A stretch of 64,000 bases of DNA from Lytechinus pictus (lineage: Eukaryota), in NCBI RefSeq assembly GCF_037042905.1, contig NC_087251.1:45820001-45884000 (forward strand). The letters run 5' to 3'. Of the stretch, positions 21,996 to 50,594 are shown one piece after another. The translations under genes and the position numbers were made by a program. The notes under the pieces were generated by a model. That model saw only the letters and a program-made list of their open reading frames with translations. It was not told the origin of the DNA and ran no database searches. How positions within the stretch are numbered: the first letter of the stretch is position 1; each line of letters opens with the position of its first letter.

Positions 21996-22137
21996 ATGTC
22001 GAAAAAGGGTTTACTGGAACGGCTCGAGGAAGGCCCGATCGTCGGGGATGGTAGTTTTGTGATTACCTTGGAGAGGCGTGGCTATGTCATGGCCGGTAAT
22101 TGGACGCCAGAGGCTTGTATAGAATATCCCGAAGCAG
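21996..22137 (+). CDS. BHMT: BHMT-like coding exon 1 ([10 protein letters not shown]...YPEA)
   Basis: Acceptor cag at 21987-21989, ATG at 21996, donor gtaatg at 22138; phase 1. Confidence 0.93.
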
Positions 22138-25100: not shown

Positions 25101-28100
25101 AGCGTGCGACCTTGCCCGTGAAGTTGCCGACGAAGGTGGCGCCCTGGTAGCCGGTAGTTTGTCACCTATCACGTCTTACAAGGAGAAAACTGCGGGCAAA
25201 GAATTCGTCCAGAATGAATTCAAGAAACAGTGTGATATATTTGTGGAGAAGGGAGTAGACTTCATGCTCGGTGAGGTGAGATTTCTTCCTCATTCTGCTA
25301 ATAAGGAATTTTTCGCAACCAATACGCAGACGCTTTCTGGAACGTTGAGAATCTATTGTCTAAAGCCCTTCATGGCAGACAAAGCAGCCTTTGTCGAAAA
25401 TCGGTGACTCAAAACACAGCAGTGCCATCCATGACTCTGGACAAACGGCATATTTGCAGTTTTCCGTCTGCTCCGAATCCTGGGACGATCTGCTGTCCAG
25501 GTTCACAAATTTTCGACAAAGACCTCTTAGCTTTATGATTTGAAGGGCATTTCAATATATTTGCGATGTTGTAGAATTTGTCTCCGTAACAATTGCGAAA
25601 ACTCGCTATTTTCAGAAAACGTAAGAGTAAATTTTCCAGAGTTATGGCGCCCACTAGAGTCTGGACAAGACGCATTGGACAATTCAGTCTCGCCTAGCAT
25701 AATTACGAAATTTTGACTACCAATGGTACCATTGATGTTGAGTATACTATTGTGATGTTCCTTGGACGTGAATATTTTTTGCCCGAGCCTCGAGCGTCAT
25801 GGTATGTTTGTATAATATGCAACGATCCCATGGGGTATTGATTTGCTTTAGATCAACATTCCTTGAATATAGTCACGGAAGTGCTGTCGGCTTGACGAGA
25901 TGATGATCCAATTTATCTTGCCATGTCGACATATTGTCAACATAGCGATATACGTCATCTTGCCAAGTCGACTGAATAACCTTATTTAGTTGACATGACG
26001 TATATGTCGCTTGCCAAGTCGATTTATAAAAAAGTTGTATGTCGATATGGCGCGATACGTGGTGTTGACGTAGATTGCCATGTCAACATTACTTGTTACA
26101 AGTATATTTGGCAAGATTTCTATCTCGCCAAGTTGACAAAACTTTTGAGGCTGACCATGACGCACGACTTGAAGGATTCGATAACATACAAAATGTATTG
26201 TCAATTGTCCGATCAGTGAATTAAAACGGCAGTTCCGTCCTGGACTCTGGACGAACGAAATAAATTGCAGTTTTTCGTCTGCTCCAAAACTTCTGACGAA
26301 ACTGCTTTTATGGTTCATCAATTTTCAACAAAGACTAGGTGCCCGTTTCATAAAAAGTTACAACTGTTGTAACTTTGCCATTATGGCCACTACCATGGTA
26401 ACCTTGATTTTGATTGGCTGCTGAGCCCTGTTGCTAGTTGTGGTAGTTGCCATAATGGCAAAGTTACAACAGTTGTAACTCTTTATGAAACGGACATCTG
26501 GGGCCCGTTTCGTGAAGAACTTGCAATTGTCTTAACTTTGCCATTATGGCAACTTATGGAAACTACCATGGTAACAGGACTCAGCAGCCAATCATAATCA
26601 AGGTTTCTAGGGTAGTTGCCGTAATGGCAAAGTTACAACAGTTGCAAGTCCTCTATGAAACGGGCCCCTGATAGACCTCCCAGCTGTTCATTGTCGTTTG
26701 GCGGGCATTTTTAATACTTTCTTGAATCCACCGCGTGTCGTGGAATCGGAAAAACTCCCTATTGTATCTCGCATAACTTTTCATAAGTCGGCTTGGCGAG
26801 ATCTCGCCATGTTGACATGTTGGCAGCTGTATTTTACATCCAATCATTTTTCACTCCCCATTGAATGATAACTAAATTTGTTTGATTCTATCAGAAGAAT
26901 TTTCCGTTAGAAAACGAGTTGATTGTGGGATATGTTCGTCATTTTCTTTAGTTTTTCGCTGAAGCTGAAGAAGCAGAATGGGCCATAGAGGTGATGGCTA
27001 AAACCGGTCTTCCTGTAGCATGCATGATGAGGATAGGCAAAATGGGAGACGAGAGCGGGGTCCAACCAGGCGATGCTGCAGTCAGAATGGCAAAAGCAGG
27101 TGCGTATACGAACGTGGTTTCTGTATGTACTCTAATGCTAAGTCACACCAACAAAATCGACTCCAAACCGACCGATGGTATATCATTGGTAATAATGTAA
27201 TAGATTTGATCGGTCTGGTGTCAGTTTCGCGGGTGTGACTGGGGCATAGAAGAAATCATGAGAAAGGTTTTTAGGGTTGAAGCAATTCCATTTTGTGTGC
27301 ATGATTGAAAGAGCGAGGAAAAGAAGAAAATTCAGGAAGAGAAAAACGATGGCTTTATGATATTTCAACACATGTGGAATGAGTTGTTATTTGGGGAAAG
27401 GTGTACTCCGGGAAGTTACTCCCGCTGGGTCCGGTTGCATTAAAGTTACTATTATGGTAACTTTCCCATCCAATGGTAACTACCATGGTAAGGACGATCA
27501 ACAGCCAATCAAAATCAAGTATTCCATTAAAGATACCATTGAATGGCAAAGTTACCGTAATGGTAACTTTTATCAAACGGGGCCTAGGTCAGCTGTTTTT
27601 TTTTTGGTGGGAATCTCTAGAGAGTTGTCTTCCAAGAAAACTTATTTACAGACCCGGGATACAGTGTATTTTAGAAGTGAAAGCAAAATGGACACTTGCC
27701 CGGGCGATACTTATAAGGGGCGCAAAAAGGTAAAAGTGAGGGGAAAAGGGGAAAAAAGGGAAAAACCTTCCCCCGCTTGAAAGCTTTATCTCGCAAACAA
27801 ACTAAACTGAAGTAAGAAAAAAGTATCTATAAGCCAAATGCTGGAAGGGGTGGCAATTCCGTTCTTATTGTCAGGGTAATTCAGGCTTAAAAGCCTACCC
27901 ATAAAGTACCGATTTCTACTAACCATGCTAACGTTAGCCGCCGAATTTGGGCAAAAATATAACTTTGAAATCACAAAACCACACACCGTTCAGAATTTAA
28001 ATAGGATTCTATCGTAAAAAGGTATTAATTTTATCTTACAATCTCGAAAAATTTATTAGCAAGAAATTCACCCCACCCCGAAACGAGTCATTCGACTGTC

Positions 28101-31100
28101 TCGTGTTTATTTTATGTTCAGGTGCTAATGTGGTTGGTGTGAACTGTTGCTACGATCCTGACACGGCCTTGAAGACAATTGAATTGATGAAAGAAGCACT
28201 GAATGAAGCAGGCTTAGAGAACGTTTATCTTATGATGCAACCTGTAGGGTACCACGCCCAAGAGATTGCTGATGACCCTAGAGGATACTTCGCGCTTCCA
28301 GAATTCCCTTTTGGTATGAAAACGATCATCTCAAAACAAGCAAAATTATCATTTCTAACTTCAGAGAATAAATGTGTTTAATTATGTTCTAATATTACCC
28401 ACGAATAGGTACTGTTCATATTTGCTTTAGCATATATATATAAACATATATATATATATATTTTTTTTTTTGGGGGGGTAAAACGAATGAATTGTTTTCG
28501 TGTTTGATTTAGAACGATGTCTTTCTGTGAAACAAATTAGAAAATCATCGGAGAACTATTATTTAGCAAGATTTTGTCCACGTGTTTATGGAATAGATTT
28601 GAAAGTATAATATCAGAATCGGTCTCTACATCCATTTTACTTAAATATTTTAATTCAGAGACAGATCCTTACTTTGATGAACAGACGATCAATAACTATC
28701 GATCAACATCGATATTTTGAACCTTTATATTGATACGTTTGTCAAAATTCCATTAATGGTAATCTCTCTCTCTCTCTCAACCCCCCCCCCCACCCCAAAC
28801 TAATCAGCATTCTGTCAACTGAAATACAATGAATTCGAAACGTTTATTTCATTAAACTTTTTTGTTATTACTATGAACGATCCTTTAAACTTGTCATGAA
28901 TTCTAACTACATAAGTGCCGGCTTGTGTATCCAGTACTATGCGTGTCGTAAGGGAGGATCCATACTATTGACCAATGACATCAACCGTTTATTTGTTTTC
29001 TTTACCCTTAAACATGTTAAAATTAGCCCGGGGAAATCAGCTCATATTTCTTCATGAAACTTTTTTTTTATTTACAGCCATGGAGCCGCGCGCTCTCACA
29101 AGAATAGATGTCCATAAATTTGCCCGTAAGGCCTATGATCTGGGCGTGCGATACATAGGAGGATGCTGTGGGTTCGAACCCTATCACATAAGGGCAATAG
29201 CGGAAGAGGTACGTTGGACATTGGTCGTAGGGCCTATATTGTAATTTTATAAATTTATAGACGATTCGCATGGCTTAAGAAATGATAAAAGGAACACATG
29301 TTTTAATATTTGGATGTACATGAATTTAGATTATTGATATATTAGCTTTTCATTTGCACAGTAGGCCTATGTCTTTTTTTCAATATTTCATTCTCGGCCT
29401 ATTTCGTTGTTGGCTTAGTCCATGAGATCTATTTTTTCTTCAAAATTCACAACTGAAAGTTATGAAGGTATGAAGGTATAAAGCAAAATTGTTCAACTTC
29501 CAATTGTCAAAGACGTTGATCAGAGTTCAGAATATGGGAAAAGAGAGTTCCTTTTATATCACCACAACGACAGAAAAATTATATATTCTAATGGTCCCTA
29601 GATTTTCGCGATAAAAGCGGAAAAATTCACGGAATTTAGGAAGAACAGAGTTAACGGAATTTTACGGAAAACTCAATGTTCAGCCCCCAAATGCAGCATG
29701 AAAAATATTGTGAAAATCAGAAAAATTAGCAAATTAACAAATTCCGATACAAAAAAATACATGAAAATACATCAGTGAGTGAAAAATCAGCCAAGCAGAC
29801 CCATTCACAGTGTTAAGCTTGTGACTGACGAGCTTAATATACAAGGTAATTTAAGTGTTAGTGAACACCGAAGAACACATTATTTGCCTTTTAGAATGTT
29901 AACAAAAAAGTGGGATCTCTAATTCTAATATAGGCCTACATCTAATCCGGTAGTTTCCCTTTATTTGTAGCTGAGTACAGAGCGTGCTCGTAGACCTCCG
30001 GGGAAAGATAAACACGAAGGATATCGTTCACTCAGACGAAGCTCCTTCCAAAGTCAAAGAGAGAGGTAAGAGATCGTTTGATTTTCATTTATAGTAATCT
30101 TTATACGCAGTCCGGCATAATAGATCCCGGGGAGTGTTTCATCAACATTTTTGTCCGTCAAGTTGTCAGATCTGACATTTCTTCATTTTGATTAGTTGAG
30201 AAGCACTGTTATATGGAAAATGTTTGAGAAAACTTGACTTGTGGGATAAAAAGTCCGACAAGTACTTTTATGAAACGCTTCCTAGGTCAGCTCGGCACTT
30301 GAGACAACTCGGCCCCTGAGGCTCAGGAAAATTAGGTGTCGAGTTGTCCATCGTAAAACCTAACCCTCAACCTTACCCTAACCTTAACCCGAATCCTAAC
30401 CATATGGTAAGATTGATACTTGAATACACAAATCAATTGAAATCATAGTTAAAAACATTGCAATTAATCTTTATTTGTCAATAAAAGAGTGATCCGATAG
30501 TGGACAATTCAGCACCGAAGTTTTTCGGCGGGGTCGAGTTGTCTCAAGTGCCGAGTTGGTTGATACCCGCCATAATGTTCTTCAGAAATATTGTTCAATT
30601 TATTACCTGGTCATACACACGTGAAAGAGGACCTCGTACCTTGTCGCCGTTTTCTTCCGACAGGGCTCCCTTTTAAGGACCGATTTGGCTGCATGTCCGT
30701 TGATTCAATACAACTTGTGCCCGCTGAGAGTCTGAAAGAGGATGAATACAAGAAACAAAACTATTTAAAGCAGAAAATGGTTGCTGTGGGGTGACAGTAA
30801 AGGACCTTTCGTTTTACACAACGGATAGTTCTACGACGATGAAATTAATAATTAAACCATTTGCGCCATGCCATGCGTCAAGTCTAAAGTTTCGTTGTCC
30901 TCTATCCATTTATGACAAGTTGCCAAATAAAAAGAACTCCCCTCTCGTTTTACGATCTCTCTGGGGGAATCAGCGTTTTGATGAACATGAGAGTTTCGGT
31001 CTCGCCATTCGCGTGATTTGTTTAAAATAAAAACGACTAATTCGTAGGACGGAAAATACTGTAACACCCGACGGCAAAGATATGTAGCTGCCAACCATCC

Positions 31101-33890: not shown

Positions 33891-34220
33891 GGTAGTAATA
33901 GTAATTTCACATAAAAATGTTTGAGAATGTTTTTCACCTATCAGTCCCTGATTGATGCTATACATCCAGATGAGGGCATATGATTTCACTTCACAAGTTA
34001 AGGCGGACGAGAATTGTCATGTTTTCGACACTGTTCATGTGCAACACTTTATTGTTAAAATTCCGCGCGCAGAGCGACGAGACGAGACGGTTGAGTGATA
34101 ATTATCGCACATGATCATTATAGAGTTCTTTATCAGCACCTAGGTATCCAAACCAAGTTTTAGTCATTATGGTCATACGTACATATGCTGCCCAATTGTC
34201 TCTTTCGAGATAGTCATGTT

Positions 34221-34450
34221 AGATGATGATGATGAAGATAATAATGATGATGATTATGATGATGATGACGGTTGTGGAGATGATGATGATAATAATGATG
34301 ATGATGATAAGATGATAATGATGATGATTATGATGATGATGACGGTAGTGGAGATGGTGATGATGACAATAATGATGATGATGATGAAATGATGATGATA
34401 TGATGATGATGAAATGATGATGATGGTGGTGGTGGTGGTGATGATGATCA
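34221..34450. repeat. Imperfect (GAT)n microsatellite
   Basis: Direct reading. Confidence 0.9.
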
Positions 34451-37400
34451 TCTATGTACTTATCATTACCGATATCATAACAGAAAATGATATTATCAAA
34501 TCTATGTCTTCTTTCTTGAAGTCATTCACTGAATTCCTTATTTGATGGATGGGAGTGGGCGGGGTCATCTTTTTTCCTGAGTTTCTCTCAGTTTCTTCCG
34601 TCGTCTGACCATGATACAATTGGAGATAATACTATCATTAACTTGTTAATCTAAATTGTGTGAGCCTATTCTCCTTACCGTACAAACTAATACTCCACTG
34701 GCGTAGAAGGGAGGGGGGGGGGGGCTTTGGTGAACTGGAGTACCGCCCCCTTCACAAAAAAAAATCACACGACCAAGAAAAAATAAGGGGAAAATAAAAA
34801 AATGTGAAATATGATATCATTTTCTGACTATTTTTTATGAAATTATAGTTTCAATTCGACCGTCAACTTTTTCGCTCGCTCGCTACTTTTTAGACATTTT
34901 CCCTATACCTCGTTTTGTGCCCCCTATTTTTTACGTCAATTTGATAACGAAAATATCAACGTATATAATGTTAAGTTATCAAAATTAGATTATGATCGTT
35001 TAAATCCAATACATTGTAATTTTTAAGGACACGATATCACTGATATCACTGCTCCATGACAACGGTTGCCATAATAAACAGTACCTCATTATAGTACGAT
35101 ACTTTGTTTAATCACTTGGGAATCGTTCTCATGTACTTTATTAATCCCCTTTTTGCTCCTAAACCTTTTCGATCCTCCTCACAGAGAAGCCGTTTGTCAT
35201 TTACAAGGTAATAGACTCACATCACAGGTATGACAGGCGAGGGGTATCTTTGGGTAATAATACACTTTTAGAAAATTCAGAATCTTTCTTTGTCCCATAT
35301 TTGAAACCTTTAAGGTACTTCAAACATGGACACAAAAAATATGAGGAAATTGATTACTATAAAACATTTTGTCCAAACATGGACAAAAAAAATTGTGAGG
35401 AAATTGATTACTATAACTTTCAGAAAGAATTCACTTTTCAAATCTAATTGTAATGATGTTCTACTGCGAATATTGATCGAATATCATCAGTTTTTCTTTT
35501 CAGAAATGTTCAATTTCCCTTCGATTCTTTGAATTCTTCATGATGAAAAAATATATTTTTGTTTCAAATTGCTTTCTTTTGATATTCTCTCTATTTTTTT
35601 TTATTTTCCCTTTGAATTTGTAGGTAACTTTTTCGTTATAATTATAACTATTTTACACCATTTCATATTTTGGGGAAATTGGGCCGGGGGGTCATTTGAT
35701 GCTGAGCGAAGCAGACTGATGTCTGTTGTCGTCATTCATTATACCATTAGCACCCAATAGATCCGTAATCAATGATCGGATTGTTAATAACCAGAAAGTG
35801 AGCGGGGATTAGAGGAAAAGGGATTGATGCGATTATCCCCTACCCCAAAAATAGTATTTCAAATTATAAACTCATGCTCAGCAGCCTATAAGCCTAGTTA
35901 TTTCTGCCTTTTTTGTGAAATGTTTCTCACATACCCATTTTTTAATACTAATTACTTTTAATTTCCATGTTCTAACTAAAGAAAAGAAAAACATATGCAT
36001 ATGTATACAGATTTAAACGTATAACGCTTTCGAAAACCGAACCCGGATAAATAAAACGTGTTTGGGAAGGAGGAGGAGGAAGAGAAGAAGAATGAGAAGA
36101 AGAAGAATCTCTTAAAAATCCATTCACAAAGTAGACGCATACTATTTTCCTCCATGCATGTGCAATTTTGTAAATAATCAATCCATAGAATACATGCGTA
36201 TACGAAGTATCATAAGGGAATTACATATTTCTAACTCTTTATATCCTATTATGCCATGTGACATTTTTCTCGATTTTCATTGGTTGGGAAGCCTTATTAC
36301 GAATGTAACTGTCGAATTAAGCAAACTTAGTCAGATGAAACGTCTGACTAGTCCGTTAATGATACGGCCCCCCAGAATGACCTTCCCCCTTTCACGCGCA
36401 CACACACAATGTAACCCACCTCTGGACAAATATATATTTTTTTATAATAACCCTTCTCCTCATATAGCCATAGCCTTTAAAAAAAAGGAAGGAGAGAAGT
36501 TATTTTTAGTCCTCTTCATATGACTGACCCATTACAACACCTACCCTGCGAAAATAATAATTGTTAAAAAATACATGTCTTCGACATTTTGTACAGACAG
36601 GCCGGCGACACCACAGAAGGGGCGGGGCAGGGGATACTCTCCTATTTTTTTTTGTTCAACTAGTGAAAATTGGGGGAGAGTAAAAATAGAAGGGAAAGGA
36701 AGAGAATGAAAAGTGTAAAAGTAATTGATATGTAAGAAAAAAAGTCATCTTCAAGCCGTCTTATACCCCACACTCCTATCAAAATTAACCGGGCACCGCC
36801 CCCGTGTACAGAGCCCCACCCCGCTCTGTACCGTGATGGACTACCTTCGGTTTCGATACCGATTGCTCCATCTCCGTATAATCAACAGTGAATGGAAATC
36901 TTCTGAATATTTATTCAGTTAGTTTCATTTCAATATCAATTCTTGTTTCATTTTTCTAAGACATCAAGCGATTCATGTTTTTTATTATTATCTTTTTGGG
37001 GGTACATATATTACAAGTTGCAACGAAATATTTTGTCTTTCATTATGTTTGCGCATGAAATTTAGTTTGCTTTGAAACGGAAATTCAGATGATAATCATC
37101 GTTCTCGATCAGCTGATTTGATCTTTATCAATGAAATATAATACTTAAGTTAGTTTGCTTGGTAAACCATTTCTTTTGAAGAAAGTGGCCTGACTTTGCA
37201 TACAATTGTAAAAGCTCCCTTCTTGATTTGATTAATTATGCTGCTATACTTTCAGCAAGTTGATGAGTAAATATGATGGTAAAAGTTTCGATCAGGATAT
37301 TTTGGCTGCAGACTACATACAAATTACCCTGACCGACTCGAACTGGAAATGGAATGATCAGAAATCAAATCAATTTTGTATCTTTTCGTTATTATTTTAT

Positions 37401-37929
37401 CGAGAGCCGTGATTTTTTATTTTCAATTTTTTTTGTTAGAAGTACTGCAGAAATTCTACCTTTTGAACAAGCAATTAGTTTAATCTCACTGCAATGGTTT
37501 ATGGGTAGAACATGGTTAAAATTAATTTGCTATCCAATGGTAATCCCCACATGTTCCATGATCAACCTAGATTTTAACTAACTGTTGAGCAATACTAGCA
37601 TGGTAGTTACCATTGGATGAAAAACGTTACCCGAATAGTATAACTTTTACGCAACTAGGGCCCTTGTATTTGCCAAACTGTTACACCAATCATAATTGTA
37701 ATATCGAGCAGCTATGAGAATTCTTAATTAAAGTAGTATTATAAAGAATATTTACAATACTTACCTTACCACTGCATTTCAAAAGATAATAAATCAATTA
37801 CCCTGCAATTATCTTTAATTTATATTTATTTGGAATATGTATTCCAGGTGGTTCTTTCTTTGAAGAAAAAGTTCATAAAATATCAGAAAATTTTTTCATC
37901 GTTAATAATTGCTCTGTTAATATTTCACT

Positions 37930-38471
37930 TTTAATACTATTGAAAATTTAACCTTTTTTTTAAGATACAAGTAGTGATGATTCATAACAGAAAAAAAAAT
38001 CAAAATTCATTCTTGTTTTGTTTTCTGTTATATCGGGGGAGAAACAAATATAGTATCTGCCGTTGGTCTCTGTTTGGTAATCATGTTCAAAATAACTTCA
38101 GATTAATTAATTATTTTGCGAAAATTCGTTTTATAACTTCATGTGAAAAAGATATTAAATAAAGTGAGAAGTGATACCCCTTTTTTACACTTTAAAGAAT
38201 GAATTATAAACGAATAATAACGTTGTTAGTTCGTTCATTTTGCCATTTAGTATTACTACTGCAAGTTTAGTGTTTCTATTGCATGTTCGATGCAAGATGA
38301 AAAGAATCATATAGTTTTTCCTGATTTCAAGAAATTTTGAAAACATGATTTATCTGAATATGATACCTTTTAAAGTTATCAGACAACATCATTCTGTGAA
38401 TATGCAGCTGTGTCTGGAATAATATGTTAAATTGAAATAAGCTAACTTAATCATATTTTTATCCAAAAGGC
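37930..38471. repeat. Direct repeat copy 1 (3' UTR/flank of the kinase gene)
   Basis: Colinear with 44980-45483; shared blocks tttggtaatcatgttcaaaat, ttcgttcattttgccatttagt, ttttcctgatttcaagaaattt, tgtgtctggaataata. Confidence 0.85.
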
Positions 38472-38533
38472 ATATTATTTTGAAATGTGTGAAAAGGGGA
38501 ATGATTTAATATCTCTTGAAATGCAGTGAGTGC

Positions 38534-38749
38534 CTACATTACCCTCTCGATCTCGTCGACGACCTCATCGATGGTGGGTCGGCAGAGGTGGGTATTAAGC
38601 CGACAGATGTTCCCGATGGCGGTGAGATCGGCGGTGTTCGTACGATCTCCTATCAGGGTCAACAGACGGCCGAGCTGGAACACGTCGCTCGAGACAGAGA
38701 TCGGATGGTCATCGAGGGCACATTCTGGGGCAATGTGGGTATAGATCTC
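38534..38749 (-). CDS. Kinase coding exon 9 (IAPE, SDVFQLG, CRPT...ERVM*)
   Basis: ttacag acceptor; TAG at 38536-38534. Confidence 0.9.
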   Translation of the reverse strand, partial: EIYTHIAPECALDDHPISVSSDVFQLGRLLTLIGDRTNTADLTAIGNICRLNTHLCRPTIDEVVDEIERVM

Positions 38750-41700
38750 CTGTAAATATGAAATTTAAAAAGGGTGTAAATTATATTATTATAGAATTTT
38801 TCTTAAAACCATCCGATTAGCGTTTGACTTATTGACACCCAAATTAGAGAGAAAACATTGAATTAGATCAATAAAAAGATTATCAATAAAGTACCATGAA
38901 TATTTCGGCAAGTATTTAATTTGACCAACATGTTAAACATACCTTTCTTCGGTACTTCTCTTTATCCTCGGTGGAGAAGCAGAAGGAGAAGGGTTCGATT
39001 CGGGAACAAGCCAGCCCAAAGTCCACGATAACCGCTTGCCATCGTCCAGATGTAGCCTTTCGAAGCAAGCAGTTGTCTTCCTTGAGGTCGTTCATCAAGA
39101 AGCCTTTCTCGTGAATCACCCCAAGTGACTTGGCAATGTCGAGAGCCAGACTGAACCTAAAGAAAAGAAAAGACCGGAGGAAAAGAAAAGACAGGTGATG
39201 TAACGTGAAAAAATCCAAATAAAGATTTATACATGTACAAGCCTTATGCTGAAGAGTTAGAATAAATCATCAACTTACCACTCTTGTTGACTCAGTACTA
39301 ACTCTCTCATGCCACGGCTGAGTGTCCAGGTCTCTCCCGTAGTCGTGTCCCCGATGAAATCCATCGCAAGGCCAATCGTTCCTGTGCTGATCTCCAAGCA
39401 TCCAAGGAAAGTCGGGAAGCACTCCTCTCTACCAAGAACGTCGAGGATGAGAGCTTCGGACTGGATGACCTTGACCTATCGAAATGCGAATCAATGCAAA
39501 TAAAAACAAATTCTTTAAGAATGCTTTTTGTTACATCTTTTTTTTTTAATCTACGATTGCATCGTCTGGCCTTATACTGTCTAATGCGAAGCTCTATACG
39601 TTTTAATGTTTTTTTTTTTCAATAAGAGAGAACCAACCTTCGTAGTCATCTCCTCAAAATCGTTGGGGAGCTCGAAGGTCTTCAGTGCGATGGGATGGTC
39701 GGTCACACGATGACGGAAGAGATGGACTGTTCCGTTTACTCCGCTGCCCAGGAAGACGTCCCCACCTCCTGGTAGGAAGGACTTCAGATCGCCCATTGCC
39801 TGGACGAAGGAAGATGCCGGGACAAGGGCAGGGGCAGTTGAACCGCTGGAAGGAGATGTGGCAACACCAACAGCTGAGCTCACTGTTGAAGTTCTACAAA
39901 AAATGGTATAATAATGATAATCATAATAGTTTTCTTCTTTAATGAAAGCCTTTTTTATCTATTGAAGCGGAGGTGCGGATAAATAACATGCAAACTTCTG
40001 CAGTCTCAAAGTCCTGAATCATTCACAAAACTAATAGGGCACTGTTTTTTTATGTTTCATTTTTTAGGGCACCTGAATTTTAACAGAAATCAAGTAAGCA
40101 GCATGATTTGATTTTTACTAACAAAAAAGAATTATTGATAGTATAGTTAACTTAGTGCTTACGCAAGGGGTAATGGCATGGTGTCAATGGGGGCTGTATC
40201 TGGTGTAGGTGGGTTGTAAGGTGCTGTGTCTGGTGTAGATGGGTTGTATGGTGCTGTTTCTGGTGTAGATGGGTTGTAAGGTGCTGTGTCTGGTGTAGAT
40301 GGGTTGTATGGTGCTGTGTCTGGTGTAGATGGGTTGTATGGTGCTGTGTCTGGTGTAGAGGTGGGTGCTACTCCACGGTCTAATGGTGCTGAAGACAGTG
40401 GCTGGGGGTTGTCTCCAGAATACCTATAGGTGACAAAAAATTTGACTTTAATTGTTTAAGTAACCTTTTTCAATCGAACAAATTGGTATACGTCTGCCAG
40501 CTATCAAAATAATACAAATATTATTAATGTTTTTTCTGTAATTTACCTTTTTTGCCCTACATGTAATTTATTATTTTGTGACCTGGGCTTATTTAATTTT
40601 TTATGTATAAACATGTTTTTCTTTGTTTAATTTTTTATTTTGAATGAAATAAAATAAATTATTTTATTCCTTCGCATATATTTCATTTGCCTTTTCCACG
40701 CCAGAAAATATGTAAATGAATACATTTTTCCCAATAATTTGCATTTCTTTCATTTTATTTGACATTTACCAAGAGCCTCTGGTAGCTGCTCCATCGGCAG
40801 GAGAAGAGCTCTTAACTGGCTCCCAAGTCATATCCTTGGAAAACAGAAATATAGATTTAAAAAAAACAATCAAAATTTCACATTGGATAGATTCTAACAT
40901 TTACATTGTTTGATGAAATAGAAAATTTGGGATATAGTTCAGCCCTAAACATTATACCATTAAACAGTATGTTTCGTGTACATCAAATTATGAAAGAAAT
41001 TATTTCCAAAAAGCATGAGTTCAGTAAAACTTTGCATCCCTTCTGGTTAAATCATTGGAAAGAATAAGAAAGTATTTACTTGAAGATTCTTTAAAGCAGC
41101 ATCTCTCTGCTTTCTGGCCTCTGCCAGTTCCATCTTCAAGATCTGGACTTCGCTCTCTGAGTCCAGGAACCGATCTTGGAAAGCCTTGGCCTTCTTCTCT
41201 GCCTGTAGCCTCCTTCCCTCTGATTCTGTCACCAGAGAGTTGATCTTAGCGAGGAGGTCTGCGCTGTCTCCATCAGGTCCAACACCAAGCTGGGAAGCCA
41301 GGCTCTGTGTATTAAAGAAATAAATACAATTTTGTTATTTTTCACGTGGCAAGAATAAAACAAGAACTCTATCACTTACAATATATTTCTTTCACTTTTT
41401 ATTTCATTTCATAGAGGTCTATATCGGAAAAATCAAGCAATGCTGAATTCTTCACTTTTATTTGTAAAATATACCAGTAGACCTTTTATGCTAAAAATAT
41501 GTTATCATTATTTCTTTTGAAGGATTTTCCCCTAAAATTGAAAAGTACAAGTGAAATCTACATGGTAGATTCTAAATAGACGTACAGCAATCTTTTCCTG
41601 AAGTTGCTGTTTCTCCAGGGACTGTTGCAAGCACTGCAGAAGCAGCTTGCCCGACATGTTGCCAGCTGATGTGTTGGGAGAGATGATGGATGGGGAGAAA

Positions 41701-42708
41701 GTTGGATCCTGGTGAGACCAACACAGCTCCTATTTAAAATTGATCATTATTTTTTTTAAGATACTACATTGATGACATTTAAAAGCCTAACTGAAAGCAT
41801 TCATGGGTTTAAGAATTTAATATTTGAATTATCTAAATATTACCCTACCATTTCAGACCTATATATAAAATTTACAATTTTTCAAATTTAGCGGCCTCCG
41901 AGGTGGTTTTTTTTCTCTTTTATCCAATTTTTATTTTTTTAAATATTTTTTATACAAATTTAGTGACTGTATGCCAAAAAATGCATAAGAAGCTGTGTCC
42001 TGAAATTGCACCGCATTGCACGCTTGAGAAGTAGTTGAATTATTTTCATTGTCTATTCATTTATATTTTTGTTTTAATTGTTCATTTACTTTTTATTACT
42101 TTTTCATTTATTTATGTATTTATCACTTTTTATTCAATCATTTATCTATTTGTCTATTTTCCCTCCATGTTTTCATTCATCTATGTAACTTTTTTCTATT
42201 TATAATATTCATTCGTTAATAAATTATTCATTTATTCATTCTTTTATTATTTGTTTATTTATTTATTTTCATTCATTCATTTACTTTTTATGGATTGATT
42301 TATTTATGCATTAACTGTTATTTACTTATCTATTAATTCTTTTATTTATTTATTCATTTATCTATCACTTTGCTGTTTGCAAATAATTTTTTTTTAATTT
42401 TGATTTACCTTCAATCCATAATTATGATGTAGTTGATAAAGTTTTATATCATTATTGTTCAATCATAATGTAATGTCATATACTTCCAGATAAGACAACA
42501 TATAAATATTAAGTCTGGTACTTATTTCTTCATTTTATTTTTGTTCCATTCTTATTCTATTTCATTTACATATTTTAATTGCATATAATTTGCTTACATC
42601 CATGGAATTAACCATCGGTGATCTGATGGCCGGAGAAGCTGACCCAGTACGGGGAACTGGTCTCAGGACCCAGGGGGTAGGGGGACGGACAAGTCGATTG
42701 CAATACAT
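38534..42708 (-). CDS. Atypical Ser/Thr-type protein kinase with N-terminal coiled coil and STPDTAPYNP repeat, 9 coding exons, 562 aa
   Basis: complement(join(38534..38749,38943..39156,39279..39475,39638..39893,40163..40423,40770..40834,41080..41304,41586..41729,42598..42708)) = 1689 nt, open, all GT-AG. Motifs: GSGVNG loop, IALK, alphaC Glu (QSEAL), MNDLKEDN, DFG, IAPE, SDVFQLG, RP. Confidence 0.88.
38943..39156 (-). CDS. Kinase coding exon 8 (catalytic loop MNDLKEDN, DFG)
   Basis: ctttag acceptor, gtatgt donor. Confidence 0.92.
39279..39475 (-). CDS. Kinase coding exon 7 (VKVIQSEALIL...LAMDFIG...QQE)
   Basis: cgatag acceptor, gtaagt donor; alphaC to hinge region. Confidence 0.88.
39638..39893 (-). 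CDS. Kinase coding exon 6 (Gly-loop LGSGVNGTV, IALK)
   Basis: ttgtag acceptor, gttggt donor. Confidence 0.9.
40163..40423 (-). CDS. Kinase coding exon 5 carrying the 30-bp tandem repeat (STPDTAPYNP x5)
   Basis: ctatag acceptor, gtaagc donor; open frame. Confidence 0.82.
40770..40834 (-). CDS. Kinase coding exon 4 (DMTWEPVKSSSPADGAATRGS)
   Basis: ttttccaag acceptor, gtaaat donor; phase 2 is required to join the next exon in frame. Confidence 0.75.
41080..41304 (-). CDS. Kinase coding exon 3, coiled coil (SLASQLG...ELAEARKQRDAALKNLQ)
   Basis: acacag acceptor, gtaaat donor; 75 codons. Confidence 0.85.
41586..41729 (-). CDS. Kinase coding exon 2 (ELCWSHQDP...QQLQEKIA)
   Basis: aaatag acceptor, gtacgt donor; 48 open codons; GC-rich island in AT-rich intron. 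Confidence 0.8.
42598..42708 (-). CDS. Kinase coding exon 1 (MYCNRLVRPPTPW...NSMD)
   Basis: Acceptor at 42736-42737, ATG at 42708, donor gtaagc at 42597; phase 0. Confidence 0.72.
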
Positions 42709-43318
42709 CGCCAAAATATGTTTCCCGTGATCAAACTAAAAGAAACTTTGTTCTAATATGAGAGAAATTGGAAAGTGAGTAGAATTGAAAAGGAAAAAGA
42801 GAAATATAAATTCAAACGTGTGTTTCAGTCACGTGACCGGTATGCATGGCAGAGGTAGATGTCCCAAACTGAAGATAATTCTTTTTATAGATTTGTCAAA
42901 ATAAATTTAGTGTACAAAGTTGTGTGAAATTCAATTTGTGAGACACTGCTTAACAATATGAAATTTATCACTTTTGTATTCTTGAATTCAGTATGCCCAT
43001 CTGAAGTTTAAGATATAGCAAAGATTTGCGATATAGGCCTAGATCTAGATCTAGTCCATCGGCCCAGGAGTTAGATTCAAAATCAAATGAAACTCAAAAT
43101 TGATATTGATCTAGATTTTAGATCAGTCTCAATTTGAATTTGATTTGAATACACATCGCTCTTCATTCTATATGTCTAGGCCCTACCGTGGTCTACGGAC
43201 TTTACAAACTGATCGATTATGCACGACCGACATCGAAAACATGAAATTTTACATTTTATCATGTCATATTTTTGTTCACTAAGTTTTGAATATTCATTAT
43301 TTTTTTCTCCAAACTTAC

Positions 43319-43640
43319 TCAAATTATCAAGAAATATCTAACGATATGATACTGACCTGACAATTAGCAAAAATGACTTGAAAAGTGCAAGCAAAATTAG
43401 TGAAAACTGTCAAAAATTTGGCAGTGGGTTCTCGAGAGAGCAAGTTTGCAAAGAGAATGGGGTTTGTTTACAAACACTTGTTACCAGGCAGGGCGCGTGA
43501 GGGGTGCAGCTGTTACCAGGGCGTGGTCACATTTGCGCTGCGCCGTTATTCAGCGCTGGCATGCTATTGGCGCATTTTCATAAGCGTTCTTTACACAGTC
43601 GGCTGGCTTTGTACTTTTCAAGATATATATTATTACGTCA
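43319..43640 (-). promoter_or_regulatory. Probable non-coding first exon and promoter of the kinase gene
   Basis: gtaagt donor on - at 43318; CpG/GC-rich patch 43480-43600 with a GC-box-like GGGCGTGG and E-box CAGCTG. Confidence 0.5.
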
Positions 43641-43759
43641 CCTTTCAAGGATGGCGTAATAATAAAAATGACCTTTAGCATGTAACTTTGATTCAACTCA
43701 TACTTCATAAAAGGGGGACTGTCTGGCTGGTCTAGCTACATGAAAATGATATGGCACAA

Positions 43760-44215
43760 TCTAAAAGTGTGATGTACATTTGAAAAGTATTTTTTTAAGA
43801 AATGAGGAAAATCCATTAGAGATTAAAGAATTTATTTATAATTTCAAGTTTTGGATTTGTGACGTCATAAACGAGCAGCTGCCCATTATCTAAAAAATAT
43901 AAAATTCATAAATTTCTAATTTTTAATGGTTCGTGATGACTTATTTTGTTTTCTTTTTAAGAACGGGTGTAAAATGGTTTGTCTATTGATATACTGAATG
44001 TACAGTAAAACAAAAAAAAATATTAAATTTTCGTTGATTTTTTACTACTCGATATGTAGGAAAGCTGCTTGCATATAACGTCACAAATCAAACAATTTAA
44101 ATTCTAATAACTTTTTATTCTTTGATGGATTTTTCTCAAACCTTCGGCAATATTTTTAATTTGTTTTCTGCTATTTAAAAAAAAAACTTTTTGTCTGGGT
44201 GGACTTCCCCTTTAA
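43760..44215. mobile_element. Kolobok-like TTAA MITE, family C (partial)
   Basis: Ends gggtggacttcccct-ttaa; related copy at about 51950-52350. Confidence 0.65.
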
Positions 44216-44979
44216 TGAATCGGTACCCTGATCCTAATAAAAGAAAGCCCTTCCCATTTTTATTCACCCAAATAGATAATACCTTCCTTTGTCGTGATTG
44301 TAATGTAGTTTGAACCTGTTCTGCTCAAGTGCATTCTTTTATAGGGCCTACTAAACTGGTTTGTTGAACGCCTTCTACTTGATGCGTGCATTTCCAGTAA
44401 TAATTATACTGAATGTACCGTGTACACATCGGCCTACCAATAGCTCAAGCCTACTGTAACTTCTGACAGTTTTTTTTTTTTTACATTTGTACTCATTTGA
44501 TTTGTTCATTATACATTTTGGTTGAATCTGCTTCACTTTTGTTCATCCTCATCTTTTCGATCCTATAGAATTTTACATATCTGGTTCGAATTTCAGATTC
44601 AATTTCATCGGCATGGTCATGATCTGTTATGTTATATGCTTCTATCAGATTTGTTTAGTTGTCTATTATTATGTTAGTATATGCTTCATTTTAATTTACA
44701 AAGAAAAGAAGATTACACGCCATTACACTTCACTGTATTCTTTAACCCCCCCCCCCCCAAAAAAAAAAAAAAGCATGCTCATCCAAACTACTATTCCGGT
44801 AAAATCTGGTTTTATGTACAGACAAAATTACGTGTCATTAATCAGATACCACGTGATGCTATTGCCTTGCCACTCGATCAAAATTGGTATCAAATATATA
44901 TTTTATTTCAATCTGTTGTTATAAGGGTTTGTTTAGTTCCATTTATTTAATCATCTATTCCGATTCCAGTTTTCCAATT

Positions 44980-45483: not shown

Positions 45484-47024
45484 ATGGGTAAGCAGGGGTA
45501 TATAGCTATAGGCCTTTTCCAGTGGGGATGGGGGTGGAGGCCCTTGATTACCGACAGATATCTTTTTTAAAGATGTTTTATTGTTTTTCTCTAAAATCAA
45601 ATTTCTTACAATGCAGTTCACAAAAGTAACTATTGTAAAGAATATTTCGAAAAAAATTCTTAAACTCTTATATACATTATGCACATCATGAAATATTATT
45701 CTAAGACACTGCATCGTACCAGATGAGTTTGTCAAACAAATATCAGAGAAAAAAACTTATAAAAGTATATGCGGTTGTACCTGCCCCCTCCTTACCCACC
45801 CCCCTTCCCTCCGCAAACCCCCACACTTCACACCCTCAAACACTCATACACTTAATACGCCCTTGCATATGGTGCCCGCGTTCCGTTTGAAACAAGAAAA
45901 ACACCATAAATTAACGAACATAATCTCGTGAGCTCTGTCGCCTCCATATTCTTGTAAGGAAATGTTCCCATTCCCTTATATGGCTTGATAATAATTTACC
46001 CCGCGTTAGTGCTAAAATTTTCTCTTCACGTTCATTTTCTAATATCTTCTCTCTAATTTCATTGGGACTTGGTAGTCTTTTTTTAGTCCTGCTGTAAGCA
46101 AAGATCAGATATTTTATTAAAAGAATAATGTGATTAATTTTCTGTTCCTTCCCTATATTTAGCATGCTTAACACCAATGTGTATATCCACCCACCTGGAA
46201 TTTGTTATTTCATACATATTGAATAAGTTACCACAATCTATCCATAAGTCTCTCGTCTTTTCACATGTAAAAAACAGATGCTCGTATAAGTTTCTTCAGT
46301 ATGCACAAAGTGAACATTCACTATCTGAGGAAATTTCGAATAAGTGTAGATATTTCTTCATGTATATTAATTCATAAAGCATTTTAAATTGAAACTCTCT
46401 AAAGCCTACTGCTTAGAGAACATTTTCTGGTTCTTGAAAATATAGCACAAATATCTTTTTCGGAGTAATTATATGTCTTCTCTATATTATTATTTAAACG
46501 CATACGATTTTACAAATTTAGTACTTAAAAGTGCATTGTATATTTTCTTGGATGTCACGTTTGGTAAACTGTTAGTCTTACCATTAAATATACATTTTAG
46601 ATTTAGACCAGTGTCTTCACAGTTGTCTTTTTTCTTCAAAATGTGTTTCCATGTTGCTGGAATATTTTCAAAAACTTTATAAACTTTATCTATTTCATTT
46701 CCATCTAACCCCATTCTCAGAAAGTCTCTAGGAGATTTGATGTTACCTTCCCTGTCGATGTAATTTATATATATTTTAAAGAAATAAGTTATCATCAAAT
46801 TGCATTTGCCCGTCTTAGACTTAGTCGAATAAGTTGGCCGAAACTAAAGTAACCAGGCATTGCCATTAGGCCCTGTCATAGCCTAGTACCGGTATGTGTT
46901 TAAAAATATCTAATCTCTTTTAGATGTTTCTTTTTTAAGAAGTACTTCTTTGGTAGCGGCCCAAATTTCCAACATATCCATATAAAATTTTGGTAATGAT
47001 ATTTTACAAATATTCAGTGAAGTA

Positions 47025-49305
47025 TTAGTATACAAATAAATCAGGCTTTGAGAAAATATAGTTGGAATTATTTATCCGAGGCGAGGTTGGACTGGCAATT
47101 ACCGGTACGGTACTAATACTATTTTTCCCGAGGAGCGAAGCCCCGAGGGAAAAATTGTTACATTGCCAGTCCAACCGAGGATTAATAATTCCCACTATGC
47201 TTTCGAAAGAAACGCCTGATATATTTGTTTTATATCCCTCCAGTCCTTGCTGATTTTTAACCAATCTCGAACAAATCTAACGTTGCCGGACCTAGTCCTA
47301 CTCTAGCTGTCGAGCTATAATTTGCTAGACAGTTCATGGGTAGGCTGCGCGCGGCTTCTACACGACTGCACTTAATGAGAGGTCCGCTGCGCTGCGTTGC
47401 CGCAGTGGCACCATAGAGTGGCACTCAAAATAAATACCGGTACCGTACGCGCAGTTAAAATGTATGCTCTAAGTCTAACGTTAAAAATTCATATCGGATC
47501 TTGACTCACCTTGTTAGGTATGTTTATTCCATATTTAAGGATCCTGTATGAATGGCCGTCGGAATTATATTTTCTGCATTGTAATCTAGACCCAATTCCA
47601 CACTGTTTTTCAGATTGTCGGCACGGTAATTTGGGCGAGAGCTTGTATTTTACTTTACTTTTTGCGGATCGATGATCGATACCTTGATCGATACATACCG
47701 GTACGGTATTCAGCTCGATGGCAGAACATTATTTGATGAAAATTTGTTTTTGAAAGATATATATCGACTACACCATATTTGTGATGAAAAAGGGCTATTG
47801 AAAAATGACGCTTATTTTATTTTAAAGGGTTTAAGTAAAGAAGAAATTACAAAAATTGGAAAAATATATTCAATAATTCCTCATGAATGGAAAAGAAACG
47901 TTCAGCCGGAAAGGAAGTCTATCCACTGTGGCCTCAGCCTAGAAATAGTATTTACAAATAAAGTTTATAAATTTGAAGAAATAAATGCAAAAATGGTGTA
48001 TAGAAGTCAAATAAGCAATAACGTGGAAATTAGCTCTGCTTTTATAACTTAATGGAAGTTTATAATATAACAGTTAAGGAAGTGGAAAAGATTTTTGTTC
48101 AGCCAAGGTTGTGCACATTAGTTAGCAAATTGAGAGAGTTTCAGTTTAAATTATTGTATAGAATAGTCTATACGAACCATCATCTACACAGATTCAAACT
48201 TCGGACAAATGGGTTGTGTTCATATTATAATATTTTAGAAGAAACATATCAACATGTATTTTTTTAGTGTAATATAATTAAAAGACTGTGGGAGAAATGT
48301 GCTGATAAATTAAACTTACCGTTTCTTAAGAGAATAACTTGGAAACAAATTCATATCGGAATAAATGGAACTAATGTAAAAACAGAACAATTATTAAACC
48401 ACATTATAATTTTGATAAAATTCATGATCTTCCATGGTAGAGAAAAGGGGTTACCTCCAAATGTAAAGGAAATTAGAGATAGATTAATTGAAAATAGAAA
48501 AGAAGAGAAACGGCTTGCAACCAAAAGGGGAACTTAATTTGGCATTTCATTTAAGAAAATGGGAGCACTTTGACGAATCAGCCTCACAGTCTTCAACCAC
48601 TTAGTAGGGTTTTTTTTTTTTTTTTTTTTTTTACCTTTATTTTTCTTATTCTTTATTCGTCGTTTATGGGGGTTGGGGGGTTTTAAGCGTAGCTAAGGTT
48701 TTTTTTTTAAGTTGTGTGTATGTTTGTTTGTTTGTTTGTTCTTTTTTTTTAAATATAACTTCCTCATTAATCAGTTTGAGTGAAGAGTATAACGAGGGAG
48801 AAAAAAGAATGTTGCATAACTTGAGTTTTATATACAGATTATAAGTGTATTTCCGTAATTCAGCTATGTTGTACCCGGATTCTGTTCTGTATTAATCCCT
48901 TTCGTTATTATAAGTTTAAATTTGAAATTCATATATATTCCTTTTCTCACTATATTAAAAGGTTCATGCGTAAACTTGAAACAATTATGTTAATGATGTC
49001 ATGTTTATATTTATTTTTTACATGTGATATGAGGAAGAAATAAAATATGATTAAAAAAAAAAAGTATATGGGTAAGTCAGGGAGCATGCGCAATTCAAAG
49101 TTGAGAGAAAATATCGAGCATGAGCATGCGCAGTTATGCCCATGAAAGTATATCGAAAAATATACGGAGCTACAAGAAAACTATACGGAGCTAATTGCAG
49201 CGATGTGTTTTCCTATTGAAATTATACTTTGTCACATGATCACGAATTGACCAACCGTTTATCTAGAATACTCATGAATATTTACAAGAGGGATATAATG
49301 AATAA
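47025..49305. mobile_element. Crypton-like non-autonomous insertion, itself interrupted by a LINE
   Basis: Hairpin-rich left end (tatccgaggcgaggttggactggcaat...cgaagccccgagg...attgccagtccaaccgaggat); inverted motifs agtatacaaataaa / tttatctagaatact and tatatccctc / gagggatata. The classification is inference. Confidence 0.45.
47715..49063 (+). mobile_element. 5'-truncated L1/Tx1 LINE 3' end, a second family
   Basis: IPHEWKR, KLREFQFKLLYRIVYTN, CS...EETYQHVFF; AATAAA and poly-A at 49038-49063. Confidence 0.85.
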
Positions 49306-50594
49306 TAACATAAGTCCTCCTACACCACGGGTTCCATATATAAAAAAAACGTTTCCATCCTATTCTGAAATCTCCTGTCAAAAGCCTTTTCAGCCACATG
49401 ACTCTTTGTGCATATACAAATAAATGAAAATCAATAATTTTAAGTCCTCCCCTTTCGTACTCCATAGACATCACGTTTCTTTTGACCTTATCTTTACCAT
49501 TCCATAAGAAATCAAACATTAAATTTTCGATCTCCTCAGACGCCCATATTGGAACTGGTAAAAGTGAAGACACATAATTCATTTTAGAAAGTGCAAATGT
49601 TTTTAGAAGTTGTATTTTTCCCATCAGGATGAGATCTCTTTGCTTCCACCATATTAATATTTTTTTTATTTTACTTAAAATCTCTTCGTAATTAACTGCA
49701 TTTTCCTGAATTTCTACATCTAATGAAAAAGTTATTCCCAATATTTTAATAGCTTCAACTAATTTACCAAGTGGAACTTCAATATTCTTTTAGAAAGAGG
49801 ATCCAACGCTAATATAAATGTTTTGTCTTTATTCATTTTTAAGCCAGAAATCTTAGCAAAATCTCCAAATATTTTTCCGATTCTATCAATAGATTGGGAA
49901 TCCCTCACAAAAAGTGTCATATCATCCGCGTAGAGCGCTTGTTTGACTGCTACATTACCAAAGCTGATTTCGTGGATGGATTTATCTTTATGAATGGTAT
50001 TAGCAAGGACCTCGATACAAAGTATAAATAAATAAGGAGAGAGGGGATCCCCCTGTCTCAAACCTCTTTCAACATTAAAATATCCTGTCGATATACCCCC
50101 ATTAAATACGCAACTCAAGGCATTTTTATATAATGTTTTGATCCAGCTGCAAAATGAGGATCCGAAGCCAAAAGAACGTAAAAAGTTTTGCAAAAAGATG
50201 TGCGAGACCGAATCAAAGCTTTTTCAAAATCTATTGCCATTAAGAAACCATGTGCATTATTTTACCCTGTATAGTATATCATATCGTCAATCAATCTTAT
50301 TGCATCTCCTATGTTTCTATCCTTTATATAACCAACTTGGTCGAGAAAAATTATTTCATGTAATATCTTTTCAATTCTATTTGATAGTACTTTAGTTAAA
50401 ATTTTGTAATCAACATTTAATAGTGAAATTGGTCTATAATTTTTTTATTAGCAGGAGATCTTTCCCTTCTTTGACAAACATAATCATAATAGCTTGCTTC
50501 TGAGATGATGAAAGTTCTCCTTTAGACTTAGCCTCATTCAAATATCAGTACCGATTACTGACGTCCGACGACCAATACTCATCTATATCCAACC

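Follow-up and report, generated by a model that had tools for sequence, protein, structure and literature searches.

An intact non-RD protein kinase gene, predicted to lack alphaG and dispersed as a cassette over 20 loci in the sea urchin Lytechinus pictus

Analysis of a 64,000-nucleotide stretch of the Lytechinus pictus genome (hereafter the window) revealed an intact protein kinase gene on the minus strand, belonging to an intron-rich subfamily present at 20 loci on 9 contigs. Our best explanation, which we hold with about even confidence, is that of a non-RD, alphaG-less kinase retained by selection and carried to these 20 loci as a whole-gene cassette, its product probably working as a coiled-coil dimer in adult tissue.

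Splicing of nine minus-strand exons across eight GT-AG introns (38534..42708) yielded 562 codons followed by TAG, with zero internal stops, which confirmed the gene model of the preliminary description. Exon GC content ranged from 0.50 to 0.57 and that of the introns from 0.22 to 0.32. Of the 12,288 ways in which nearby splice sites can be combined, only 64 kept a frame longer than 540 aa. The same splice sites produced open frames in eight other paralogues (9 of the 12 modelled loci, window included). Five close paralogues carry an extra exon of 120–123 nt that is missing from the window copy, and in the model of the paralogue at C5:14.09 Mb exon 4 shows a shift of one base, perhaps through a modelling error. 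The exons are the following:

43357..43462, minus strand: likely untranslated exon 0, with no ATG; donor after 43357, next acceptor ending at 42736
42598..42708, minus strand: coding exon 1, residues 1–37, Pro-rich, with the start ATG
41586..41729, minus strand: coding exon 2, residues 38–85, where the helical region begins
41080..41304, minus strand: coding exon 3, residues 86–160, coiled coil
40770..40834, minus strand: coding exon 4, residues 161–182, linker
40163..40423, minus strand: coding exon 5, 10-residue Thr-Pro repeat in 5.6 copies, predicted to be disordered
39638..39893, minus strand: coding exon 6, linker, Gly loop and beta3 lysine K340
39279..39475, minus strand: coding exon 7, alphaC glutamate E361 and hinge
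38943..39156, minus strand: coding exon 8, non-RD catalytic loop (D443, K445, N448) and DFG D465
38531..38749, minus strand: coding exon 9, APE, alphaF, alphaH, alphaI and stop (coding to 38534), predicted to lack alphaG

The exon 1 start codon is preferable to the Met62 start of the database models, because a distant paralogue (C7:37.28 Mb), with an overall dS of 1.4, retains both the ATG and the exon 1 frame. Upstream, the exon 0 donor was conserved in all seven aligned copies and also in distant paralogues, and zero RNA reads crossed the exon 0 junction. Among the proposed coding junctions, those between exons 5 and 6 and between exons 6 and 7 were each joined by two reads of RNA run X1, derived from a paralogue or an allele and possibly from one molecule, and almost no support came from the window copy itself: reads matching it at 99% or more were 2 of 62 in X1 and 0 of 57 in X2, most of the matching RNA corresponding to an unspliced paralogue.

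The window protein contains a complete catalytic set (Gly loop, K, E, D, N, DFG, APE, the D of alphaF and the R between alphaH and alphaI), with M/H-N-D in place of H-R-D. Its alphaF-to-alphaH segment is about 25 residues short, and therefore alphaG appears to be absent, as had been proposed. This was borne out by the spacing between D513 and R548 (35 residues; 35–37 in the window and cnidarian-type members), by a profile alignment in which 29 residues of the top PDB chain, 7t6f, stood opposite 4 profile positions in this region, and by the AlphaFold model of paralogue P0007 (kinase domain 62% identical, pLDDT 93), with a single helix between alphaF and alphaI. The modelled P0007 showed a bilobed eukaryotic protein kinase (ePK) fold, with Z of 20.9–24.5 to 50 PDB entries and an rmsd of 2.6 over 227 residues, so an ePK fold without alphaG is predicted for the family. 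The kinase had been described as intact and unrecognised; the first part held, whereas the second did not, since 6 of 6 paralogues scanned passed the Pfam Pkinase cut-off of 31.7 (44–55 bits; single window exons scored below it) and are uncharacterised kinases at NCBI. The earlier statement that no standard ePK family can be assigned was supported: matches to PDB structures and profiles were flat across kinase groups with none preferred, identity to solved kinases was 14–25%, phmmer with P0007 against PDB returned nothing at 1e-3, and no named family or solved relative was found. The Lys of a D-L-K-x-x-N loop points to Ser/Thr targets, and a kinase without the RD arginine need not await activation-loop phosphorylation to be active. 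From what is generally known of kinases, the level and place of expression of such an enzyme and its localisation would then be the main controls on its activity.

Members of this alphaG-less non-RD family were detected in echinoids, asteroids, crinoids and cnidarians, so the description of the family as lineage-specific had to be abandoned; the intron-rich subfamily alone looks echinoid, with P0005 and P0006 as its Strongylocentrotus members. Forty-six family rows formed one clade with a support of 100/100, measured against only 8 conventional kinase domains. This clade and the range from echinoids to cnidarians indicate that the short alphaF–alphaH segment is a family trait and not damage. 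The Lytechinus pictus genome contains at least 54 family kinase loci (18 intron-rich, 36 with a long kinase exon). By features, the nearest cluster in the Atlas was a mostly cnidarian kinase cluster. As regards a possible viral origin, pattern matches among viral contigs (3 of 116) were weak, at 32–45% over 55–100 aa. In the literature searched, where subscription papers were thinly covered, no description of an alphaG-less non-RD kinase family was found.

Comparison of the eight close copies that are intact revealed purifying selection, with dN/dS between 0.21 and 0.45 over all 28 pairs (median 0.30, repeat excluded) and not near 1, and with values of 0.10–0.27 for the kinase domains of close copies against that of the window. 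Aligned non-coding DNA of close copies had diverged by 0.10–0.35, against a dN of 0.009–0.047.

In the N-terminal half, the tandem TP repeat and the coiled-coil peptides were all found as first described, as was the short distance from alphaF to the C-R-P motif. The heptad score peaked at residues 118–165, and a parallel homodimer was predicted for residues 1–105 of paralogue P0004 (99 of 105 identical), with a score of 0.55 against 0.00 for the best control, contacts agreeing in at least 86% between runs and pLDDT of at least 77. Among solved structures, 21 of 30 microbial homodimers attained the score mark used, as did 7 of 16 animal homodimers but none of 23 monomers; the pass of this paralogue may reflect likeness to solved coiled coils. 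The suggestion that the protein may dimerise is thus supported by prediction. Residues 97–301 of P0004 had pLDDT under 50, which predicts disorder; its full-length AlphaFold model was poor (mean pLDDT 48) and was taken for helix and disorder only. The Thr-Pro repeat itself is encoded by a 30-bp unit in 5.6 copies (40193–40359), and exon 5 varied from 261 to 411 nt among the eight intact copies. As its copy number differs between paralogues and its dN/dS is 0.31–0.68 among close copies, the repeat, earlier taken for a possible phospho-acceptor tail of the kinase, may be a mere spacer, most likely variable in length and modifiable by other, proline-directed kinases. As alphaG would not be there to offer a docking surface, delivery of the two kinase heads to their substrate would fall to the coiled coil together with the variable disordered linker.

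Beyond the coding exons, the following features were recognised:

33935..44971, minus strand: widest stretch with a counterpart in one or more other copies
43463..43670, minus strand: conserved promoter block, kept in close copies and in the ~60% clade
43523-43512, minus strand: putative X-box-like element inside the promoter block
43474-43463, minus strand: putative forkhead-like element inside the promoter block
37770..38528, no strand: 27-nt inverted repeat (93%) whose arms flank the 0.75 kb that follow the stop
36805..36875, minus strand: 71-nt double-hairpin motif, conserved and private to the kinase subfamily

The core common to nearly all close copies extends from about 43670 to 36790. 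Its promoter and exon 0 block was present at 19 of the 20 loci, and the two elements inside it, which we take to be X-box-like and forkhead-like, are candidate sites. Nine of the 10 close copies, which are related and not independent, have an X-box-like element of the strict pattern upstream, the background rate being 0.1 per kb; all four distant paralogues tested lack the strict pattern and show variants instead. Co-occurrence of Fox and Rfx at cilia gene promoters is described in PMC5245798. Testis and ciliated cells would be the likeliest adult tissues for the kinase to act in.

At the other end, the double hairpin was found at 18 of the 20 loci and, in genome-wide pattern searches, nowhere else. 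In its alignment 98.7% of cells were paired along a 9-bp stem, and two pairs had changed on both sides (covarying). It was lost in both frameshifted close copies and kept in 8 of 8 intact ones, and it may be a cis element of the transcript. A conserved donor-like site lies at 37765, just past the 27-nt inverted repeat. An Rfam scan of 35500–44500 gave two chance-level matches, neither at the motif, and H/ACA, SECIS, tRNA and RSS readings were ruled out by eye and with Rfam. Between RAG1-like and RAG2-like genes, 14 nt match the motif; this match comes after a poly(A)-type signal, has neither stem and was attributed to chance.

The copy ends were nested and differed from pair to pair. Past the hairpin, similarity between close copies continued for 46 nt to over 3 kb, so that no sharp end is seen among them, and distant copies diverged just after the stem. 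No terminal inverted repeat common to both ends was found at the 10 loci tested. Such nested, unequal ends and the lack of a common inverted repeat agree with duplication and selection: copying would most likely have occurred as DNA-level duplication of 7–12 kb pieces, with selection retaining those copies that keep promoter, frame and 3' hairpin. However, two kinase-less loci (C3:31.68 Mb and C17:30.78 Mb) are internal deletions that keep both ends, a result not predicted by selection for the protein and counting against this explanation. Insertion into a host intron was discarded, as the neighbouring BHMT-like gene ends near 29–31 kb and the cassette is therefore intergenic. Two candidate termini were also rejected, an upstream repeat at 51849 that three copies share but that recurs at many sites in the DNA examined, including downstream of one copy, and a (GAT)n-bounded unit whose ends do not match the repeats in all copies.

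In an alternative reading, favoured by the two internally deleted derivatives, the cassette would be a mobile element of the non-autonomous kind. Its hairpin and promoter end would act as cis signals recognised by a mobiliser from another site, and the kinase would be cargo of use to the element, perhaps in the germ line. We consider this unlikely. In its favour, promoter, exon 1 and exon 3 are present at all 10 close loci that have exon 8, and the rough probability that a 5-kb gene would be whole in 9 of 9 further random 11-kb pieces is 0.004, a figure that ignores selection and shared ancestry; moreover, the hairpin is tandemly repeated two to three times at three C18 loci. Against it stand the continued similarity beyond the hairpin and the missing inverted repeats, together with the absence of a 5' or reverse copy of the hairpin motif upstream at 14 loci and of the motif from any transposase locus; nor was a transposase found near the urchin kinase loci.

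Marine metagenome contigs bear on the same question. Of seven contigs with a distant relative of the kinase, three carry the same conserved unknown gene head-to-head with it and one carries a P0176-like gene in that arrangement; three of the seven are too short to show neighbours, and two have kinase frames that are interrupted. Two colinear pieces of P0176 could be aligned with RAG1-like catalytic motifs (BLASTP E 0.012 and 0.026). However, this likeness is weak, with an hhalign probability of 1% (E 0.05, against 0.22–0.78 for five shuffles) and no Pfam or PDB match for P0176, and the conserved unknown gene gave no usable match either. Neither partner gene was found in the Lytechinus pictus genome with the queries used; RAG1-like genes are present there, and three cnidarian queries detected no RAG1-like transposase near the kinase loci. 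A broader version, in which alphaG-less non-RD kinases form an ancient transposon-borne class, paired head-to-head in cnidarians with a Transib/RAG-like transposase and an unknown gene, and in urchins reduced to an intron-rich promoter-to-hairpin cassette still mobilised in trans and leaving kinase-less derivatives, seems unlikely to us. Within our preferred reading of duplication and selection, the family may still descend from transposon cargo.

An expansion by birth and death of innate-immune or anti-parasite effector kinases, with the dimerising coiled coil as sensor or as the part recruited and the non-RD kinase as the signalling or killing moiety, appears quite improbable. It would agree with the 82 non-RD cases among 85 hits that had a single catalytic-loop match, with the lineage-specific radiations bearing unrelated N-termini and with the high number of loci in this genome. 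However, no death, TIR, LRR or other immune domain appeared in the single-kinase members (42 proteins scanned), the close copies are under purifying and not diversifying selection, and RIPK1 and IRAK scored no better than CDPK, TNIK or FES. Finally, a selfish germ-line element of the segregation-distorter type, amplified for dosage, is very improbable: young dispersed copies with their own promoter (five copies on two contigs, dS 0.03–0.08) and a possible analogy with mouse Smok and fungal Spok genes would suit it, but no linked antidote gene was seen and the family is old and common to cnidarians.

A catalytically complete ePK without alphaG, extending from corals to sea urchins and with at least 54 loci in a single genome, would add to the animal kinome a sizeable branch that has no name. 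Such kinases would offer a natural test of the purposes that alphaG serves. The cassette-like spread of an intron-rich gene under selection is likewise a testable question, and if the transposon link were true, kinases would be added to the cargo of RAG-type DNA transposons; among the titles found, none dealt with kinase cargo of transposons. The family is also a concrete candidate for the "urchin-specific" kinases that lack an assigned function. According to the part of PMC4883820 that summarises Bradham et al. 2006, Strongylocentrotus has 21 such kinases of the Other group, weakly expressed in the embryo and probably acting in the adult.

With the ePK superfamily (Pfam PF00069), the window family has in common the bilobed fold and the full set of catalytic residues, differing in M/H-N-D for H-R-D and in about 25 missing residues that include alphaG. 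The "urchin-specific" kinases, as far as the summary describes them, are likewise unclassifiable sea-urchin ePKs weak in the embryo, a possible overlap, but the window family also has asteroid, crinoid and cnidarian members. Non-RD immune kinases (IRAK1/RIPK-type and plant pattern-receptor kinases) are alike in lacking arginine before the catalytic aspartate and in having an oligomerising N-terminus, predicted in the window family; unlike them, the window family has no death, RHIM or receptor domain, lacks alphaG and matches them no more closely than other groups. The RAG-like/Transib transposons described in PMC10462144 have a parallel in the weak RAG1-like catalytic motifs of the P0176-type cnidarian neighbour, whereas neither heptamer-type terminal inverted repeats nor a transposase were found at the urchin kinase loci. 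Finally, compared with the Helentron/HINE elements of PMC4067079, which are non-autonomous rolling-circle elements with a 3' end 8–35 bp beyond the palindrome in T-rich target DNA, the urchin cassette lacks a matching 5' subterminal repeat and, in the close clade, a sharp T-flanked end, and its hairpin motif was found at kinase-family loci only and in no autonomous element, but both have a conserved, palindrome-bearing 3' motif, tandem ends, deletion derivatives and a carried gene.

Splicing by coordinates of the nine exons proposed in the preliminary description (minus strand, 42708..38534) yielded 562 codons plus a stop, with eight GT-AG introns and GC-rich exons standing out against AT-rich introns. 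The gene is real and under selection. Its product has a Pro-rich N-terminus, a helical region at residues ~65–160, a linker that is 62% Pro/Ser/Thr/Ala and holds a 10-residue repeat, and a C-terminal kinase. The kinase landmarks, in residues of the window protein, were:

301–562, kinase domain
318, Gly loop
K340, catalytic residue
E361, catalytic residue
D443-L-K445-x-x-N448, catalytic loop
465, DFG
498, APE
D513 and R548, both present

As Asn precedes the catalytic Asp, this is a non-RD kinase. The absence of helix alphaG, noted earlier from the sequence, was borne out by the AlphaFold model of the paralogue P0007 (pLDDT 93), in which helices 209–226, 231–240 and 251–261 read as alphaF, one helix and alphaI. 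When the profile is aligned to the top-ranked PDB chain, that single middle helix falls on alphaH, with 4 profile positions against 29 residues, so alphaG is missing. Dimerisation, also proposed, finds support in a prediction for the coiled coil of another paralogue, P0004, whose residues 1–105 are identical to window residues 62–166 at 99 of 105 positions. Two copies of this piece were predicted to form a parallel in-register dimer (score 0.55 versus 0.00 for the best control; contact agreement at least 86%, pLDDT at least 77), although this score may reflect resemblance to known coiled coils. The mark used was reached by 21/30 solved microbial homodimers, 7/16 animal homodimers and 0/23 monomers.

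Exon 8 was matched at 59 places in the genome assembly (69 candidates scored), ten of them, including the window, at 81–100% identity and eight at 58–63%. The ten close copies have introns and flanks in common (70–90%) over ~7–12 kb and, beyond that, little except common repeats; eight of them give an open frame when spliced, the other two being frameshifted. Among 28 pairs, dN/dS was 0.21–0.45 (Nei-Gojobori script), not near 1, and may be inflated by synonymous constraint or exon-biased conversion, since non-coding divergence is 1.8–3.2 times dS. In the copy at C7:46.81 Mb, the exon 1 region is tandemly duplicated. At another 36 loci, a single long exon encodes most of the kinase; 11 of these loci make up a tandem array of near-identical exons (C7:28.967–29.009 Mb) with a period of ~4.0–4.3 kb. 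At C14:9.88 Mb, two copies of one coiled-coil exon, 39% like exon 3, were found, and the 30 kb covered there held no kinase exon.

The intron-rich subfamily comprises 20 loci on 9 contigs, counting two kinase-less ones, with the promoter/exon 0 block at 19 and, at 18, a 71-nt double hairpin lying 1.7 kb 3' of the stop in the window gene. This motif is near-invariant in close copies, and its conservation is ~80% across the distant clade. Searched with one mismatch allowed, an 18-letter pattern hit 23 sites, family loci accounting for 22 (reversed control, 1), and a 17-letter pattern hit 22, namely 17 at such loci, one apparent remnant on contig C2 and four unrelated (reversed control, 3). Across 13 copies, pairing holds in 98.7% of cells, and at two pairs both sides have changed; the covariation score was reached by 0/500 shuffles, a comparison that related sequences can win without structure. 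At C3:31.68 Mb and C17:30.78 Mb, the two kinase-less loci, both ends of the cassette, promoter and hairpin, are retained. The cassette ends are nested, not sharp, and the loci examined showed no terminal inverted repeats. Duplication plus selection best explains the spread, mobile-element cargo being a live alternative. Around the cassette, the window contains:

11941–13313, tandem array with a period of 158/328 bp
22000–29200, plus strand, exons of a gene that we take, by its motifs, to be betaine-homocysteine methyltransferase-like, stopping before the cassette
43803–44216, inverted-arm high-copy element of ~415 bp, immediately upstream of the promoter
46490–50223, minus strand, broken LINE that retains part of a reverse transcriptase (Pfam RVT_1, E 2e-20), upstream of the cassette

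Fold searches returned ePKs of all groups at near-equal scores, and the named exon-8 homologues (7/58 candidates) were uncharacterised kinases of Lytechinus and Strongylocentrotus, to which a kinase-domain search added Diadema (14/554). A 14-sequence profile retrieved 304 representatives at E ≤ 1e-30, some being multi-kinase proteins that sum weak scores. The 30 clusters whose taxonomy was looked up included 18 from echinoderms (echinoids, asteroids and crinoids), two cnidarian, one chytrid multi-kinase protein and nine without a name. Among matches listed with exactly one catalytic-loop match, 82/85 were non-RD and most had the short alphaF-to-Arg spacing. The N-terminus varies by subfamily, coiled coil or low-complexity sequence being typical. 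A tree built from 54 domains placed the 46 family rows in one clade (100/100) against eight conventional domains, and within it the two rows from cnidarians were sister to those from echinoderms; given so small an outgroup, this is not a formal classification. The kinase belongs to an ePK variant family that apparently has no name, some members of which may already be included in the supplements of the 2006 sea-urchin kinome paper.

Among eight RNA runs (tissue not stated), one gave two reads across exons 5–6 and two across exons 6–7 at the predicted sites. Most of the matching RNA was unspliced, with intron ends pointing to a copy like that at C18:1.09 Mb. In the assembly, that copy is frameshifted, carries a 5.3-kb insertion and lacks the hairpin; similar unspliced RNA contigs bear one or two hairpins and probably represent a different allele transcribed without splicing. 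The close copies were near-silent in the eight runs. Urchin-specific kinases are reported second-hand to be weak in embryos (PMC4883820). The near-silence fits this, and says nothing on tissue. X-box-like and forkhead-like elements lie in the promoter. Such pairing is described at cilia genes (PMC5245798). We infer that the kinase acts in the adult, likely in testis or ciliated cells, as a dimer with Ser/Thr specificity.

Among 28 metagenome loci, family kinases were also found on seven contigs (L160–L166; profile E 1e-30 to 1e-52), and these seven we infer to be cnidarian host DNA. On three of them, the kinase lies head-to-head with one gene, 31–35% identical between copies, with the conserved motif G-x-G-E-G-R-A-T-R-E and no match in Pfam or Atlas:

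L162:469–996, head-to-head gene
L163:6193–7541, head-to-head gene, with a C2H2-like finger upstream
L166:414–968, head-to-head gene

On L164, the kinase is instead head-to-head with a gene related to the cnidarian product P0176 as well as to the anemone model P0142 over the N-terminal half of the latter. Neither type of neighbour was found in the urchin assembly with the cnidarian queries used. Two small contigs of that assembly (C182 and C233; L202–L205) hold two convergent frames, an open RAG1-like one of 612 aa and one of 291 aa that looks RAG2-like. There, 13.6 kb are 99.99% identical between the contigs, perhaps through recent copying or through duplication in the assembly, and 430-bp direct repeats lie 17 kb apart. 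P0176 aligned with the RAG1-like frames of the urchin weakly, but at the catalytic motifs.
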